From Acidimicrobiia bacterium (GTDB taxonomy: Bacteria > Actinomycetota > Acidimicrobiia > Spongiisociales > UBA11373), in assembly GCA_041572755.1 (NCBI GenBank), contig JBFFRY010000002.1, positions 3,901 to 67,900 on the forward strand: a stretch of DNA of 64,000 nucleotides. Reading direction: 5' to 3'. Below are positions 1 through 6,115 of the stretch, piece by piece (the stretch's first letter is position 1; each line of letters begins with the position of its first letter). Position numbers and translations under genes: made by a program. A model generated the notes under the pieces. The model saw only the letters and a program-made list of their open reading frames with translations. It ran no database searches and was not told where the DNA came from.

Positions 1-1371
1 CCTGCCATCGACCGCCACCTCCTCCCCCACGAACTCGGCGGGCACCAGCGTCGGCCAGAACATCGCCACCGGTGTCGCTGCGCCCGGCGGCGCCGTCATC
101 GTGAAGCCCGGATACCCGGCGAGTGCCAGTTCAACGGCCCGCGCTGAGAATGCCCTGCCCACAGAGGCGGGGTCGGAACCCCGGACGTTGACCCGGAGCA
201 TGGCGAACCCCTCGGCACTTCGCTCCGCACCCGGCCGATCACTCCGCACCAGATCGAACTCGATCTCGAGAGGAGCCAGCACCTGCCGCAAGCTGGTCTC
301 CGCCAACGCAGCCTTGGCTTCGACCTCCGGCGCCGGCACCAGCAGCGTCACCGAATTCCGGAACCCGCCGAGCACGTTCATGCCGACCTTGATCGTCGCC
401 GGGGCCGGTTCACCGCGCACCCCCCGGACGGCCACCCGATCCTCGTCTTCCCGGATGAGCTCGATCGTGTCGAAGCGGGCTACCACATCGGGGTGCAGGT
501 AGGACGGTCCCGCCACTTCGTAGAGCAGCTGCGCAGTCACGGTGCCGAGCGTGACGGCCCCTCCGGTCCCCGGGTGCTTGGTTATCACCGCCGATCCGTC
601 GGCGTGAACCTCAGCGATGGGGAAGCCGGGGTGCTCCAGACCTGGGATCTCGGCGAAGAAGGAGTAGTTCCCGCCGGTGCACTGGGCTCCACACTCCACA
701 ATGTGGCCCGCCACCACGGCGCCTGCCAGCGAATCCCAGTCGTCCGGCTCCCATCCGAATCGCCAGGCGGCCGGACCGGAGACCAGCGAGGCGTCGGCCA
801 CCCGGCCCGTCACCACCACATCGGCACCCGCCCCCAGAGCAGCGGCGATCCCCCATCCCCCGGTGTAGGCGTTGGCGGTCAGGACCCGCTCGGCCACCTC
901 AGAGAACGGCGCTCCGGTGTCGAGGTTCATCAGATCGGTGACACCGGAGATCTCGCCGAGTCGCGCCACCAGGTCGTCGCCGCTCACGACACCGATCGAA
1001 GGGGTAAGGCCCAGCCGATGCGCCAACTCTCCAAGCCGCTCCGCCAGACCGGCCGGATTGAGACCGCCGGCGTTGGCGATCACGCGCACCCCCCGGTCGA
1101 GGCAGGTCCCGAGCACCACCTCCATCTGCTGCAGGAAGGTAGAGGCATATCCCGCCGAGGGGTCATTGCTCCGGTTACGCCACAGGATCGCCATCGTGAG
1201 TTCAGCGAGGTAGTCGCCGGTCAACACATCGATCGGGCCGCCGGTGACCATCTCCTCGGCGGCTTCGAAACGGTCTCCGTAGAAGCCGGAACAGTTGGCG
1301 ACGATCAGCGGCTCGCCGTACCCCTGTGGTCCGGCGTCACCCCGAGTAGGTGAGGCACTGGGCGGCCCCAT
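1..1371 (-). CDS. AtuA-like protein (DUF1446, acyclic terpene utilisation AtuA family), partial. It runs off the window 5' end. The ATG at 1371..1369 overlaps the upstream peptidase gene by about 35 nt.
   Basis: Manual minus-strand translation gives MGPPSASPTRGDAGPQGYGEPLIVANCSGFYGDRFEAAEEMVTGGPIDVLTGDYLAELTMAILW..., matching the conserved AtuA N-terminus (R/LIxNCSGFYGDR ... LTGDYLAE). It is absent from the ORF track because there is no in-window stop. The + strand ORFs here (493..1353 etc.) are R/G/H-rich shadows. Confidence 0.7.
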   Translation of the reverse strand, partial: MGPPSASPTRGDAGPQGYGEPLIVANCSGFYGDRFEAAEEMVTGGPIDVLTGDYLAELTMAILWRNRSNDPSAGYASTFLQQMEVVLGTCLDRGVRVIANAGGLNPAGLAERLGELAHRLGLTPSIGVVSGDDLVARLGEISGVTDLMNLDTGAPFSEVAERVLTANAYTGGWGIAAALGAGADVVVTGRVADASLVSGPAAWRFGWEPDDWDSLAGAVVAGHIVECGAQCTGGNYSFFAEIPGLEHPGFPIAEVHADGSAVITKHPGTGGAVTLGTVTAQLLYEVAGPSYLHPDVVARFDTIELIREDEDRVAVRGVRGEPAPATIKVGMNVLGGFRNSVTLLVPAPEVEAKAALAETSLRQVLAPLEIEFDLVRSDRPGAERSAEGFAMLRVNVRGSDPASVGRAFSARAVELALAGYPGFTMTAPPGAATPVAMFWPTLVPAEFVGEEVAVDGR

Positions 1372-3007
1372 TGAAGAACCCGTCCTTGAAGGCGTTGAAC
1401 CGCTGGAATGCAGTGCCGCCGCTCGGCTCCCCGGTGGCGGGGTCGTCTCCGAATGCCAAGAATCCCGCCACCCCTTCGTCGAGGTCCCCGGCGGAGAGAA
1501 CCAGCCCCAACGGGTTGTCGAAAGGCACCATGTCGGCCGTCCACACCCCGGTCAGGCAATCGGCCTGCAATTCGGCGATGAGGCCCTCGGTGGGGAGTCC
1601 CGCTCGGGCCTGGATGCCGGTTGCCCATTCATGGGCGAGGACCATGCCGATGGCAAAGTCGCCGATCCGCTGGTAGAGCGCCGGGAACAGGTTCTCGTTG
1701 TCCCACGCCACGAAGTCGCCCGGAGGACAGTAGAAGGCGTTCCCCAGGTAGTCGTCGGGATTCGGCTCCCCCGGCCCACAGGGCGGCAGGAGCCCGGTCG
1801 AGGGGAGGTAGGGCCCGTAGTTGGTCATCGGTATGTAGTCGGTGCCGAAGAGCTGCGGGTACAGAAGCGACCAATACAACTCGAGGGCCTCGATCACCAG
1901 CGGCGCCACGTCGGCGAAGGGGAGGTCGCCGCCGGTCTGCAGATCCTCTTCGGTGAGGGCAACGTCCACCACGAGGAACTCGCCCTGCTCGTAGGCACGG
2001 CATTTCTCCGGACCGTTCAGGAACCCATCCTGGAAGGCGTTAACGCGATCGAAGGCGCTGCCGTGGGCCTGCGGATCGCCGGGATCGGTGCCCGGCGGGT
2101 CGCGGAACAGCAGATAGCCGGCCATCGCTTCCTCCAGGTCTCCCGACTCCAGAATCAGCAGATCACTCTCACCGGCATCGACCGCCCCGGCCCAAACCCC
2201 GGCGAAGCAATCGGCCTGCAGCTCCGTCATGATGGTGAGCCCGTCCACCGAAGCCCGGGCCTGCACGGCGTGGGCCCATTCGTGCGCGAGCACCAAGGCA
2301 ACGGCGAAATCGCCGAATTCGGTGTAGAGGCCGGGAATCAGCACCTCGGCATCCCAGGCGATGAAGTCGCCCGGGTGGCAATAGAAGGCGTTCTCCTGGT
2401 ACGCCTCTATGGGGAGCGGGTCTGGCCCACAGGGCGGCAGGTCCCCCTGGGACGGGAAGTAGGGGATGACGGCCGCGAGATCTTCATAGGCGACGCCGTA
2501 GAGGTCGGGAAGCGTCCCTCCCCAGAACGAAACCAGATCGTCCTGGGTGAGCACCAGCAGTTGCTCGAGGTCCAACGCGACCGGTTCGCCGTCCCCGACC
2601 ACCCCGGGTTCCTCCGGCCGACCGGCTTCCGCCAGGCAGAACTCGGTCACATCGAGGACCACATCCGCCCCGGCGGGGTCTCCTTGGCCCAGCGCCACGA
2701 ATTCGTCCAAGCTCAATAGCGCCTGGAACTCGGTGATCGTGCACCTGCAGAACTCCGCGTCACCGTTCTCGGTGCATCCTTCCATGTAGACGTCCACGAC
2801 GGCCTGCGGGTAATCACCCTCGAGCGCAGAGACAACGGTGGTATCCGGGGCGGTGGTCGTCTCCGGGGTCATGGTGGTGCCGGGAGTCGTGGTCGTCGGT
2901 GCCGATGTTGCCGCAACGGTGGTCGGGATGGTCAGGGCACCGTCGCCGTCGCCACAAGCTGCCGCCACCAAGGTCAACGCCGTCACCACCCCGAGCAGAC
3001 GCCTCAT
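1337..3007 (-). CDS. Secreted lipoprotein with two tandem YpfJ-like putative neutral zinc metallopeptidase domains. Domain 1 has HEWAH; domain 2 has a degenerate HEWAT.
   Basis: 556 aa. Signal peptide plus lipobox (LTLVAAAC). T/P-rich linker. Two repeats of the pattern NAFYC(H/P)PGDF(I/V)AWD...GDFA(V/I)..VLAHEWA(H/T)..QAR, which is the YpfJ family signature (AFYCP.D..IY.D..F...GDFA....AHE.GHHVQ) as I recall it. Confidence 0.75.
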   Translation of the reverse strand: MRRLLGVVTALTLVAAACGDGDGALTIPTTVAATSAPTTTTPGTTMTPETTTAPDTTVVSALEGDYPQAVVDVYMEGCTENGDAEFCRCTITEFQALLSLDEFVALGQGDPAGADVVLDVTEFCLAEAGRPEEPGVVGDGEPVALDLEQLLVLTQDDLVSFWGGTLPDLYGVAYEDLAAVIPYFPSQGDLPPCGPDPLPIEAYQENAFYCHPGDFIAWDAEVLIPGLYTEFGDFAVALVLAHEWAHAVQARASVDGLTIMTELQADCFAGVWAGAVDAGESDLLILESGDLEEAMAGYLLFRDPPGTDPGDPQAHGSAFDRVNAFQDGFLNGPEKCRAYEQGEFLVVDVALTEEDLQTGGDLPFADVAPLVIEALELYWSLLYPQLFGTDYIPMTNYGPYLPSTGLLPPCGPGEPNPDDYLGNAFYCPPGDFVAWDNENLFPALYQRIGDFAIGMVLAHEWATGIQARAGLPTEGLIAELQADCLTGVWTADMVPFDNPLGLVLSAGDLDEGVAGFLAFGDDPATGEPSGGTAFQRFNAFKDGFFNGAAQCLTYSG

Positions 3008-3408
3008 CCTTCCCCCTGGGTCCGTCCCCGCCAGCCAAGCCAGCCCCGCCAGGCACCCGGGCCCGGCCGAGTGTCGTAGACCCGTTCCGGGAACATCACC
3101 TCACCGTGAATCTCGGACAGCCGCCGCAACAGCCACTCGTCGAAGGGATCCGACGACCCCTCCAGGGCGGCAATTGCCGCGCCCGCCTCCGTGCCTTCGA
3201 ACAGGTAGATCGCGGAGCGCACCGGCGCCTCCAAGAGGAAGACGACTTCTCTTGTGATGCCTCTTCGCTTCTGTGATTGCGCCCACTCACCACGACGGGG
3301 TCCGGTCAGTTCGGCCTGGAACTCCCGCCAGGCAGAAACCTTGTCCGAGTCGAGCGAAGCGATGGCGATCGATGCGGTCACGGTGGCCCTCCGCGAGAAC
3401 GCGGTCAC
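3004..3408 (-). CDS. Hypothetical protein (134 aa). Its stop overlaps the peptidase start (ATGA-type coupling).
   Basis: Minus-strand ORF with protein-like composition (K/E/D/F/I/Y present). The + strand ORFs across it look like shadow frames. No family recognised. Confidence 0.4.
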   Translation of the reverse strand: MTAFSRRATVTASIAIASLDSDKVSAWREFQAELTGPRRGEWAQSQKRRGITREVVFLLEAPVRSAIYLFEGTEAGAAIAALEGSSDPFDEWLLRRLSEIHGEVMFPERVYDTRPGPGAWRGWLGWRGRTQGEG

Positions 3409-3414
3409 CCTAGT

Positions 3415-4566
3415 TCACGACCGCCGATTCGGTCCGAGGCCCAACACCTCTTCGTACAGGGTCCGGAGACGAGCCACCCACAGGCGCCCGTCGAACTCCC
3501 CCTCAAACCGTTCCCTGGCCCGTTTCCCCATCAGCCGGCGGGTTGCCGGATCCTCTGCGAGGCGCGAGACCTCCCGTGCCAGGATCTCGGCATCGCCCGA
3601 ATCGACGAGCGTCCCCGCCTGATCACCGACGATCTCCGGAATACCTCCCACCCGGGTCGCCACGATCGGCTTCCCGGCGGCCAACGCATGGATCAGGGCC
3701 GTCGGAAGGGCGTCGGCGCTGCTCGGCTGCACCACGATGTCGGCGCCCGCCAACACCCGGTCCACATCCTGCCGGAAGCCGGGGAAGAGCACCCGCTCCC
3801 CAAGGACCCCCAGTTCACCGGCCCTGGCGAGAAGCCGATCGTGTTCGGGACCGAGACCGACGAGTGCGAAGACCACAGGGGAGCCGCCCGGGAGGAGGGC
3901 GGCAGCCTCGACGACATCGTCGTGCCCCTTGCCGGGGCGCATGATCGCCACCATCACCACCAGCACCTGATCCTCACCCACGCCCCACTCGTCCCGCACC
4001 TCATCCCGATGGGCGGGCTCACTGCGACGATCGGCGATGCCGTTGCGGATGGTGACAACCGTCGTCGGGTCCGCCCGGTGGGATTCGAGGTACCAGCGGC
4101 GCACCGCATCCGACACGGCGATCGTCCGGGTTGCCGCCTTCCCTCGCGCCCGAACCGCCGCCCATCGCTTGAGCCGGCCGACCGGGCCCCTTGCGTCATC
4201 GAGGACGTGCAACGTCGACACCATCGGAATCCCCAGGCGATTGGCGGCCGACGCTCCCACGATGTCGGCGTGCCTGAGATGGGTGTGCACCACATCGGGC
4301 CGCCACCGGCGGAGGATTCGCACCGCTCGGCGGGCGGCCCGGGGATCCCACCGGGTCCGCAGCCCCAGCGTCCCGACCTCCACCCCGGCAGCCTTGAGGC
4401 TGCCGGCGACGGCACCGCTCCCTTCCGCCATCAGGCTGAGCACGGTCATCTCGAGTCCCACCGCGGGCGCCAACTCGGCGAGTTCGAGCAACAGGTGTTC
4501 GGCGCCGCCGCGGCGGAGATCATGAATTACGTGGCACACGCGCAGGGGCGAGGGCCGGCCTGTCAT
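3415..4566 (-). CDS. Glycosyltransferase family 4 (GT4, group 1). The start is probably the ATG at 4566 (MTGRPSPLRVCHVIHDL...) rather than the ORF-track ATG at 4629.
   Basis: N-terminal GT4 fold motifs (VCHVIHDLRRGGAEH, DVVHTH). C-terminal GT-B sugar-donor domain (GSPVVFALVGLGPE..., PSSADALPTALIHALAAGKPIVATRVGGIPEIV, E-x7-E region). Confidence 0.8.
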   Translation of the reverse strand: MTGRPSPLRVCHVIHDLRRGGAEHLLLELAELAPAVGLEMTVLSLMAEGSGAVAGSLKAAGVEVGTLGLRTRWDPRAARRAVRILRRWRPDVVHTHLRHADIVGASAANRLGIPMVSTLHVLDDARGPVGRLKRWAAVRARGKAATRTIAVSDAVRRWYLESHRADPTTVVTIRNGIADRRSEPAHRDEVRDEWGVGEDQVLVVMVAIMRPGKGHDDVVEAAALLPGGSPVVFALVGLGPEHDRLLARAGELGVLGERVLFPGFRQDVDRVLAGADIVVQPSSADALPTALIHALAAGKPIVATRVGGIPEIVGDQAGTLVDSGDAEILAREVSRLAEDPATRRLMGKRARERFEGEFDGRLWVARLRTLYEEVLGLGPNRRS

Positions 4567-4666
4567 CGGACTCCCGTTTCGCTGCTCATTCATCGGTTGA
4601 TGCGGGCCACCTCTGTAGGGGCGCCCCACGTAAGGATCGTGACGGGCCTAGCCTCGCGGAGGTCTC

Positions 4667-6115
4667 ATGCGAATCCTGGTCACCGGGGCAACCGGTTACA
4701 TCGGCGGCCGTCTCGTCCCCCGCCTCATCGAGGCCGGGCACGAGGTTCGCTGCGCGGTGCGCCGCCCCAGCAAGCTCGCCGGCCGGTCCTGGTTCGACGA
4801 CGTCGAGGTCGTAGAAGGTGACGTCCTCAACGCCCGTCAGGCAAAGGAGGCCGCCGCAGGCTGCGACGCCGCCTACTACCTGGTGCATTCGATGGCAGCG
4901 GGAAGCGATTTCGCCGAACAGGATCGGCAGGCCGCCCAAAACTTCCGGAAAGCCGCCGAGGCCGCTGGTCTGCGCCGCATCGTGTACCTCGGGGGTCTCG
5001 GCCCTGAGGACGCCCCCCTGTCCGCTCACCTCGCCAGCCGACGGGAGGTGGGCCGACTGCTCGCCGAGGGACCGACGCCGCTCACCGAACTCCGGGCGGC
5101 GGTCATCATCGGGTCCGGCTCCCTCTCCTTCGAGATGCTTCGGTACCTGACCGAAGTGCTGCCCGTCATGACGACCCCCAAGTGGGTACGGACACGCTGC
5201 CAGCCAATCGCCATCCGGGACGTTCTCGAGATCCTGGTGCGAGCGGTCGACGACGACGCTCCCATTGACCGGATCCTCGAAGTCGGCGGCCCCGACACGC
5301 TCTCCTACCAGCAGATGATGCAGGTCTATGCCGAGGAGGCCGGTCTGCGACGGCGGCTCATCATTCCGGTACCGCTTCTGACCCCACGGCTCTCATCGCT
5401 GTGGGTGGGCCTGGTGACACCGCTCCCCACCAGCGTTGCCCGTCCTCTGGTCGAGAGCCTGCGCAGCGAAGTGACAGTGGGGGACAGAGCGGCCGATGCT
5501 CTTCTCCCTCACCCACCGACGCCCTATCGCGAGTCCGTGCGCCGCGCCTTGATGAGCGAGGATGTCACCACCCGCTGGTACGACGCCGAGCCGAGCCCGG
5601 CCCTCCCGGTTCCCGGGGATCCCTCCTGGAGCGGCGGAACCGTCTTCGAAGACCGCCGGGTGGTGCCGACCGACGCTGCACCCCACCACGTCTTCTGGGC
5701 ATTCAGCCGGGTCGGTGGCGACGTCGGGTACTACGGCGTCAACTGGGCATGGCGGCTGCGCGGCCTTCTGGACCGGCTCGTTGGGGGCATCGGCCTGCGC
5801 CGCGGCCGGCGCCACCCCGAAGACGTTCGTGAGGGCGAGACCATTGACTTCTGGCGGGTTGAACGGGTGGTCTCCGATGAGACGCTCCGGTTGCGAGCCG
5901 AGATGCGGCTCCCCGGACAGGCGTGGCTCGAATGGAACATCGTGCCCACCGACGAGGGCTCCGATCTGGTGCAGGTCGCCCGCTTCAGGCCGCGGGGGCT
6001 CTTGGGGCGTCTCTACTGGTTCGTCATGGCCCCGTTTCACTCGGTGATCTTCCCCCGCATGGCATGCCGCATCGCGGCCACCGCCGAGGAGCGGGGCTAC
6101 TCCTGCGCTTCGTAG
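4667..6115 (+). CDS. NAD(P)-binding SDR/NmrA-like oxidoreductase fused to a C-terminal DUF2867 domain.
   Basis: MRILVTGATGYIGGRLVPRL (Rossmann GxxGxxG), with a C-terminal domain typical of DUF2867 fusions. 482 aa. Confidence 0.75.
   Translation: MRILVTGATGYIGGRLVPRLIEAGHEVRCAVRRPSKLAGRSWFDDVEVVEGDVLNARQAKEAAAGCDAAYYLVHSMAAGSDFAEQDRQAAQNFRKAAEAAGLRRIVYLGGLGPEDAPLSAHLASRREVGRLLAEGPTPLTELRAAVIIGSGSLSFEMLRYLTEVLPVMTTPKWVRTRCQPIAIRDVLEILVRAVDDDAPIDRILEVGGPDTLSYQQMMQVYAEEAGLRRRLIIPVPLLTPRLSSLWVGLVTPLPTSVARPLVESLRSEVTVGDRAADALLPHPPTPYRESVRRALMSEDVTTRWYDAEPSPALPVPGDPSWSGGTVFEDRRVVPTDAAPHHVFWAFSRVGGDVGYYGVNWAWRLRGLLDRLVGGIGLRRGRRHPEDVREGETIDFWRVERVVSDETLRLRAEMRLPGQAWLEWNIVPTDEGSDLVQVARFRPRGLLGRLYWFVMAPFHSVIFPRMACRIAATAEERGYSCAS

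Follow-up and report, generated by a model that had tools for sequence, protein, structure and literature searches.

We describe here a lipoprotein metallopeptidase gene carried on the reverse strand, at positions 1337..3007, of a 64,000-nucleotide stretch of DNA from an Acidimicrobiia bacterium (assembly GCA_041572755.1, contig JBFFRY010000002.1; the whole stretch is called the window below). The encoded protein contains two copies of the PF04228 peptidase domain placed in tandem. The first copy (module 1) carries an intact set of active-site residues; the second one (module 2) has lost part of this set and is not decaying, the purifying selection that acts on it being as strong as that on module 1. 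We are probably dealing with an enzyme that has a single active site plus a functional dead lobe, whichever non-catalytic role this lobe plays. We also show that the association of a live module 1 with a dead, conserved module 2 is standard across a large family of actinobacterial proteins that has remained unstudied, and of which the present gene is an ordinary, typical member and not an oddity.

Two PF04228 Modules in a Single Chain

The open reading frame (ORF) runs without interruption over 556 codons, from 3007 to 1337, and its G+C content (around 66%) matches that of the surroundings. A first-pass annotation, made from the sequence alone, had described this ORF as a tandem-duplicated YpfJ-type zinc metallopeptidase lipoprotein, and we found the 556-residue frame and all the strings and motifs that it quoted in the sequence. 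The tandem duplication itself is well established. Indeed, modules 1 and 2 are 48% identical over 189 aligned residues (E = 2e-57), i.e., a repeat far beyond chance, and Pfam recognizes two stretches of PF04228 in the whole protein (78.8 bits, E = 6.6e-22). Taken alone, each module also passes the curated gathering cutoff of the family (23.2 bits), with 50.5 bits for module 1 and 38.6 bits for module 2. The corresponding motifs read NAFYCHPGDFIAWD...GDFAVALVLAHEWAHAVQ in module 1 and NAFYCPPGDFVAWD...GDFAIGMVLAHEWATGIQ in module 2. The parts of the gene that matter for the argument are the following (all on the reverse strand):

1337..3007, reverse: whole gene, 556-residue tandem PF04228 lipoprotein metallopeptidase (ORF list; two PF04228 stretches in Pfam; stop codon at 1337-1339)
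1982..2569, reverse: module 1, residues 147-342, intact PF04228 gluzincin domain (50.5 bits; signature HEHEDDHR)
2270..2284, reverse: HEWAH of module 1 (H242, E243, H246), two putative zinc ligands and catalytic base (invariant in 120/120 homologues; aligned with YpfJ H167, E168, H171)
2210..2224, reverse: E262-L-Q-A-D266 (ExxxD) of module 1, putative third zinc ligand Glu and His-orienting Asp (invariant in 120/120; on helix 258-277; gluzincin fold matches)
2063..2065, reverse: H315 of module 1 (AHGS), family-invariant His and putative transition-state stabilizer (aligned with the THGT His of YpfJ)
1919..1981, reverse: inter-module connector, residues 343-363, with a conserved GGDLP motif (pLDDT 95-96; conservation)
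1340..1918, reverse: module 2, residues 364-556, conserved pseudo-peptidase copy of module 1 (48% identity to module 1; 38.6 bits)
1619..1633, reverse: HEWAT of module 2 (H459, E460, T463), degenerate HExxH with Thr for the second zinc-ligand His (sequence)
1559..1573, reverse: E479-L-Q-A-D483, ExxxD retained in module 2 (sequence)

The AlphaFold2 (AF2) model of the protein has a mean predicted local distance difference test score (pLDDT) of 87.9 and a predicted template modelling score (pTM) of 0.77, and the connector is confidently predicted. This pTM and the high confidence of the connector suggest that the two modules may be held in a fixed arrangement. In the modelled module 1, the helix that bears HExxH (residues 233-251) is followed by a second helix (residues 258-277) that bears E262-L-Q-A-D266, i.e., a zincin fold in which the active-site helix precedes a "glutamate helix", as in gluzincins. 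The fold matches were gluzincins of the M13 (neprilysin, ECE-1, PepO, and Zmp1 of M. tuberculosis), M4 (thermolysin and LasB), and M48 (BepA) families. However, these enzymes share only 12-20% identity with the protein over 118-174 aligned residues, and the PF04228 domain, with its 195 residues or so, is much smaller than any of them. PF04228 has no solved structure; Foldseek and sequence searches against the PDB gave no match.

The Active Site of Module 1

In order to define the shared residues, both modules were aligned with YpfJ of E. coli (taken from NC_000913). The family-invariant set comprises HExxH (H167, E168, and H171 of YpfJ), ELQADC, GDLEE, the His of (T/A)HG(T/S) followed by an Arg, and a C-terminal Cys. 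Module 1 carries every one of these motifs, including HG(S/T)..R and the C-terminal Cys. The zinc would be bound by H242, H246, and E262. Since the E262-L-Q-A-D266 helix directly follows the HExxH helix, E262 is the candidate third ligand and D266 the candidate His-orienting Asp, while H315 would be the auxiliary His, with a role proposed by analogy with H231 of thermolysin and H711 of neprilysin.

Indirect support for this zinc site comes from the invariance of the residues and from the study of KPN_02809, which binds one zinc, is blocked by metalloprotease inhibitors, and degrades casein (PMC3269727). Its H171S mutant retains only around 0.4 zinc (PMC3269727). The HExxH His is thus a zinc ligand in KPN_02809, in line with what the first-pass annotation had assumed.

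Loss of Catalytic Residues in Module 2

The same annotation had noted that module 2 lacks the second zinc-binding His (HEWAT) while HEWAH is intact in module 1. This is what the sequence reads, with T463 in place of the His; the description of the loss was however incomplete, as the His equivalent to H315 is also gone. Indeed, the alignment with YpfJ places a Gly at this position in module 2, and R536 is retained.

We then considered an eight-residue signature, HEHEDDHR, which corresponds to H242, E243, H246, E262, D266, D303, H315, and R321 of module 1. Once 118 full-length tandem homologues had been aligned with MAFFT, the full signature was found in module 1 of all the proteins (118/118) and in module 2 of only 4/118; the five core residues, i.e., HExxH plus ExxxD, are kept in module 2 of 7/118. 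The degenerate states are varied, NERQ being the commonest; other examples are HET(E/S), TQ(H/E)(Q/T), and LQRE. Counting residue by residue over 120 homologues, module 2 shows H, N, T, or D at column 459; E or Q at column 460; and R, T, H, or E at column 463. Column 479 is occupied by Q in 56/120 and by E in 38/120, and D483 is kept in 117/120. In the commonest state (N-E-x-x-R ... Q, read at columns 459, 463, and 479), the second zinc-binding His gives way to an Arg, whose guanidinium group could sit at the former metal position.

In the 27-member subclade that includes the window protein, the second His is replaced by T, V, A, or R, and a Ser takes the place of the third-ligand Glu in 8/27 of the members. 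A compensating ligand in module 2 was, for the first-pass annotation, one of the findings that would speak against a pseudo-enzyme. At the sequence level, we found none in this HEWA[T/V/A/R] subclade: every His, Asp, Glu, Cys, Asn, or Gln of module 2 kept in at least 85% of the sequences is also conserved at the corresponding column of module 1, and no candidate residue is specific to the subclade.

Purifying Selection on Module 2

The two modules are conserved to similar degrees among the 118 homologues (mean pairwise identity of 59% for module 1 and 56% for module 2), and module 2 presents 22 invariant positions across 100 sequences. The ratios of non-synonymous to synonymous substitution rates (dN/dS) between the window gene and its counterparts in three relatives are as follows:

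Relative L088 (83% protein identity): module 2, 0.041; module 1, 0.076
Relative L089 (76% protein identity): module 2, 0.085; module 1, 0.078
Relative L090 (63% protein identity): module 2, 0.115; module 1, 0.131

Module 2 thus combines the two properties of a pseudo-peptidase, i.e., the loss of catalytic and metal-binding residues and a purifying selection on the inactive copy. Conservation in module 2 extends to the NAFYC and AWD strand motifs and to R536; in a zincin fold, one would expect such positions to border the substrate cleft.

A Family-Wide Live and Dead Pair

The first-pass annotation had proposed to look for the same duplication in other actinobacteria, and it turned out to be the family standard. 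Using module 2 alone as the query, we scanned 1.84 billion cluster representatives with HMMER and obtained 1987 matches at E <= 1e-3, of which 227 at E <= 1e-30. The counts that follow rest on the best 150 of these matches, in clusters at 50% identity. Two modules are present in 149 of the 150; the HEHED core is intact in module 1 of 145/145 complete representatives and in module 2 of 2/149. The reversed polarity, i.e., a dead module 1 with a live module 2, was found neither among these best matches nor among the homologues.

A separate scan, of one genome per species, places the tandem forms in Acidimicrobiia, in Mycobacterium and Mycobacteriales, in Kribbellaceae, and in other actinobacteria, whereas Streptomyces, Actinomadura, Chloroflexota, and Proteobacteria gave single-module forms. 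Genomes of Mycobacterium and Mycolicibacterium, among them complete ones of the latter genus, often encode tandem lipoproteins of around 450 residues whose module 2 is fully degenerate. These proteins are 37-41% identical to the window protein, differ from it by the absence of the 4-Cys N-terminal domain described below, and are named in databases only as "neutral zinc metallopeptidase". Thousands of tandem proteins of this kind are stored under this generic name.

In the window clade, the module 1 and module 2 subtrees mirror each other, with bootstrap values of 99-100% for the module 1 subclades and 62-68% for those of module 2; the two halves have therefore co-diverged since one duplication. 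The first modules together form a single clade in 62% of the bootstraps (124/200), and deeper relationships are poorly resolved. A recurrent, independent duplication within the clade was considered and rejected: a first neighbour-joining tree built on BLOSUM distances had grouped the module 2 sequences of the clade with its own module 1 sequences as sisters, and bootstrapping recovered this grouping in only 2/200 replicates (1%). The members with an intact module 2 are scattered over different subclades and, if this scattering is real, module 2 catalysis has been lost several times via different substitutions.

Two rare tandem relatives among the cluster representatives, P0277 (498 residues) and P0071 (485 residues), carry the HExxH plus ExxxD core in both modules. 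P0277 has no H315 equivalent in its module 2; its N-terminus is Gly-rich, as in YpfJ, with a membrane anchor in place of the lipobox, so that it may resemble an ancestral form with two active sites.

Proposed Mechanism and Alternative Explanations

The pairing of a catalytic and a pseudo-enzyme module in one lipoprotein, which the first-pass annotation had suggested, gains support from the contrast between the signatures of the two modules (118/118 vs 4/118), from the dN/dS values, and from the lack of any compensating ligand. In the mechanism that we propose, the protein would be an extracytoplasmic gluzincin zinc metallopeptidase, held on the outer side of the cytoplasmic membrane through a lipid on Cys18 and a flexible Thr/Pro stalk, and peptide-bond hydrolysis would occur in module 1 alone. 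There, E243 would act as the general base on the zinc held by H242, H246, and E262, D266 would orient a His ligand, and H315 and R321 would help to bind or stabilize the substrate. Module 2 would be an old internal duplicate that no longer catalyzes. Because it keeps its fold, its disulfide cysteines, the NAFYC/AWD cleft strand, and R536, and appears rigidly joined to module 1, it would most likely be a non-catalytic partner lobe, which by analogy with other duplicated peptidases might bind or position the polypeptide substrate or gate the access to the module 1 cleft. Substrate binding by module 2 would be one form of this role.

Several points weigh against this scheme. The window protein still has H459, E460, E479, and D483 in module 2, so that module 2 might bind metal weakly. 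The protease activity of the family is known from one in vitro casein assay of a single-domain member that is only distantly related (around 32% identity). For lipidation and export, the evidence is a sequence pattern only. Finally, the neighbouring genes (glycosyltransferase, epimerase, AtuA, prenyltransferase) give no hint of a substrate.

The residues kept in module 2 lead to a different explanation, in which both modules are active and module 2 binds a metal through H459, E479, and an unrecognized third ligand, perhaps with a different specificity. The subclade of the window protein does keep H459, E460, D483, and mostly E479, and the intact HExxH plus ExxxD found in module 2 of 7/118 close homologues and 2/149 representatives means that a two-active-site enzyme exists in the family. 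However, T463 is unable to ligate zinc and its position is free to vary in the subclade; the Glu479 equivalent is replaced by Ser in almost a third of the members; the H315 equivalent is absent; no conserved His, Asp, Glu, or Cys is particular to module 2 of the subclade; and a single mutation, H171S, already cripples zinc binding in KPN_02809. We thus regard a second active site as very improbable. At the other extreme, module 2 could be a functionless relic of the duplication, or the tandem an artefact of assembly or gene fusion. The loss of catalytic residues is what one expects of a decaying copy, but dN/dS values of 0.04-0.12, equal to or below those of the active module, and the 22 invariant positions contradict a relic, and an artefact is contradicted by a layout that recurs across 149 or more clusters (50% identity) from independent assemblies, with an identical protein on 10 contigs from different samples. 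The selection and distribution data refute this explanation, to which we give practically no credit.

A closer competitor assigns to module 2 the role of an intramolecular regulator, either autoinhibitory or chaperone-like, which would occlude or shape the module 1 cleft until freed by a signal or a partner, or that of a docking domain for another envelope protein. It would account for the strong purifying selection on a non-catalytic domain and for the rigid, conserved connector, and pseudopeptidases often act by protein-protein interaction or regulation (PMC11266112). On the other hand, module 2 has kept its cleft strand and R536, which would suit a peptide-binding lobe no less well, and we hold regulation or docking to be rather unlikely, although less so than a second active site. 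Coming back to the partner lobe, a broader and more tentative proposal is that the tandem PF04228 proteins form a distinct, ancient, and previously undescribed class of actinobacterial envelope lipoprotein peptidases, LpqM included, in which the dead lobe is an obligatory partner of the active one for substrate capture or gating, as a gluzincin counterpart of the M16 clamshell. This might be so, but we would not wager on it; if it were true, module 2 would set what these proteases cut.

Relation to Known Systems

The window protein shares with YpfJ and KPN_02809 the Pfam domain PF04228 and the HExxH, ELQADC, GDLEE, (T/A)HG(T/S)..R, and F..GF..G...C motifs. YpfJ is however a single-module protein of around 287 residues, with an N-terminal Gly-rich segment and the motif HExGHH, and is only about 32-34% identical to either module, whereas the window protein is a lipoprotein with two modules, an extra N-terminal domain, and the motif HEWAHA. 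Against NF050010 (Zn_HExGHH_YpfJ) of NCBIfam, it scores 89.6 bits, far below the equivalog cutoff of 250 bits, and is therefore not a YpfJ orthologue. The designation as YpfJ-type holds for the membership in PF04228 and fails for orthology.

Inactive copies have been described in other duplicated metallopeptidases, where they are essential or conserved, i.e., in the M16A/C pitrilysins of the insulin-degrading enzyme type, in MPP alpha/beta, and in domain III of carboxypeptidase D (PMC11266112). As in the window protein, an internal duplication has left one copy with its metal site and another without it. M16 peptidases (HxxEH inverzincins) and M14 carboxypeptidases have folds and motifs unrelated to those of PF04228, and module 2 would find its closest functional parallel in the inactive domains of M16 and carboxypeptidase D. 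A pseudo-enzyme domain in tandem is thus a known phenomenon, and its occurrence in PF04228 has not been described previously in the literature that we searched, in which we found neither this tandem layout nor a pseudo-domain of the family.

Another relative, at the level of description, is FP0506 of Flavobacterium psychrophilum, an elastin-degrading cell-surface lipoprotein that is regarded as a putative gluzincin, with PF04228 as its best match in HHpred (PMC6414381). This relation is remote and holds at the profile level only, and no tandem or pseudo-domain is described for FP0506.

LpqM (Rv0419/MSMEG_4913/MAB_1470c), a lipoprotein metalloproteinase of mycobacteria, likewise carries a lipobox, and one HExxH is annotated in it. 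With its 500 residues or so, LpqM might belong to the tandem family. It is reportedly needed for conjugal DNA transfer and intramacrophage survival, with phenotypes in M. smegmatis and M. abscessus. If the mycobacterial members do include LpqM, the pseudo-domain bears on these phenotypes.

PF04228 is a very large and nearly uncharacterized family, with one in vitro study. In Actinomycetota, it occurs mostly as a fixed pair of an always intact N-terminal module and a nearly always inactivated, conserved C-terminal one. This pair offers a testable handle on function, i.e., the binding partner of the dead lobe, and adds a bacterial gluzincin to the short list of metallopeptidases with a pseudo-enzyme domain in the same chain. 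The annotation of the window is also improved: a lipoprotein that probably has one active site and carries, besides a pseudo-domain, a 4-Cys domain specific to its clade.

The N-Terminal Region

Upstream of module 1, the protein comprises three further parts:

2954..3007, reverse: signal peptide with lipobox (MRRLLGVVTALTLVAAAC) and putatively lipidated Cys18 (sequence; Cys18 kept in 111/120 homologues)
2819..2953, reverse: Thr/Pro-rich disordered linker, residues 19-63 (AF2 pLDDT below 50 at residues 8-62; poorly conserved, gap-rich)
2618..2818, reverse: four-helix, 4-Cys domain, residues 64-130, with C78, C87, C89, and C124 (AF2; homologue conservation)

The signal, made of MRR, a hydrophobic core, and VAAAC, ends in the lipobox LVAAAC, which matches the Gram-positive lipoprotein pattern; an N-terminal signal peptide ending in a lipobox Cys is the pattern of bacterial lipoproteins, and a lipobox-like pattern is found in 106/120 homologues. 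The MRR start followed by hydrophobic residues (2999-3007, reverse strand, residues 1-3) is largely kept in the family consensus. It could correspond to a twin-arginine (Tat) rather than a Sec signal, in which case the protein would be exported folded and loaded with zinc. The Thr/Pro linker evolves fast (dN/dS of 0.35-0.69).

The first-pass annotation had pointed to an additional small Cys-rich module, which we recover as a four-helix domain in the AF2 model (helices 68-81, 84-97, 100-108, and 115-127; pLDDT around 80-96). It encloses the Cys-rich segment CTENGDAEFCRCTITEF at residues 78-94. Each of the four cysteines is kept in 97-98/120 homologues, and the full four-Cys pattern in 96/120. 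The domain has no Pfam match, and a hidden Markov model built on it matches, among the sequences collected in the analysis, only tandem peptidases of the clade of the window protein. Its presence correlates weakly with the inactivation of module 2: 6/7 proteins with an intact module 2 are devoid of the domain, but so are 18 degenerate ones. All 13 cysteines of the protein are conserved in the homologues, with four conserved cysteines per module, which fits an exported, disulfide-bonded protein.

Genomic Neighbourhood

An identical protein was called on 10 other contigs from different samples; on six other contigs with the identical protein, one of them in the NCBI assembly GCA_041571455.1, independent gene callers agree. 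We found no second PF04228 gene elsewhere in the window. The neighbouring genes are the following:

1..1371, reverse: AtuA-family gene, ATG at 1371, running off the window (Pfam AtuA, 521 bits, E = 2.3e-156; gene calls)
3004..3408, reverse: small ORF, 134 residues from the GTG at 3408 (125 residues from 3381 in other pipelines), upstream of the peptidase gene and translationally coupled to it
3415-4629, reverse: GT4 glycosyltransferase, 404 residues (50% identity in L008)
4667-6115, forward: NAD-binding epimerase fused to DUF2867, 482 residues (70% identity in L008)

The 35-nucleotide overlap with the AtuA gene, reported in the first-pass annotation, was recovered in the sequence, in the gene calls on six other contigs, and with Pfam. 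An AtuA gene with the identical overlap is found only in the closest relatives (L001-L006, L088, and L089), for instance at 11637-13475 in L001, 1713-3200 in L088, and 4598-5395 in L089. In L090, a cis-prenyltransferase gene (PF01255, 4721-5503) directly follows the peptidase gene; in the window lineage, the prenyltransferase comes after AtuA. AtuA is also absent in L008 and L009. Because it is present only in the closest relatives and absent in L090, L008, and L009, AtuA looks like a recent insertion between the peptidase and prenyltransferase genes, with its start codon inside the 3' end of the peptidase gene, rather than a functional partner.

On the other side, the order epimerase/DUF2867, GT4 glycosyltransferase, small ORF, and peptidase is kept in four other Acidimicrobiia genomes as well as in L089 and L090. 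With a glycosyltransferase and polyprenyl synthesis, the neighbourhood has a cell-envelope flavour. The coupling of the peptidase gene to the small ORF was likewise confirmed by reading the sequence: the ATG at 3007 overlaps the TGA of the small ORF (ATGA), and a G-rich, Shine-Dalgarno-like run lies just 5' of it. Neither Pfam nor NCBIfam recognizes the small ORF, which is devoid of a signal peptide; its single-sequence AF2 model is mostly helical and of low confidence (pLDDT 57.5). A homologue of it lies directly 5' of the peptidase gene in L008-L011 (38-46% identity) and also in L089 and L090; in the Acidimicrobiia relatives, this position and the translational coupling to the peptidase gene are constant.

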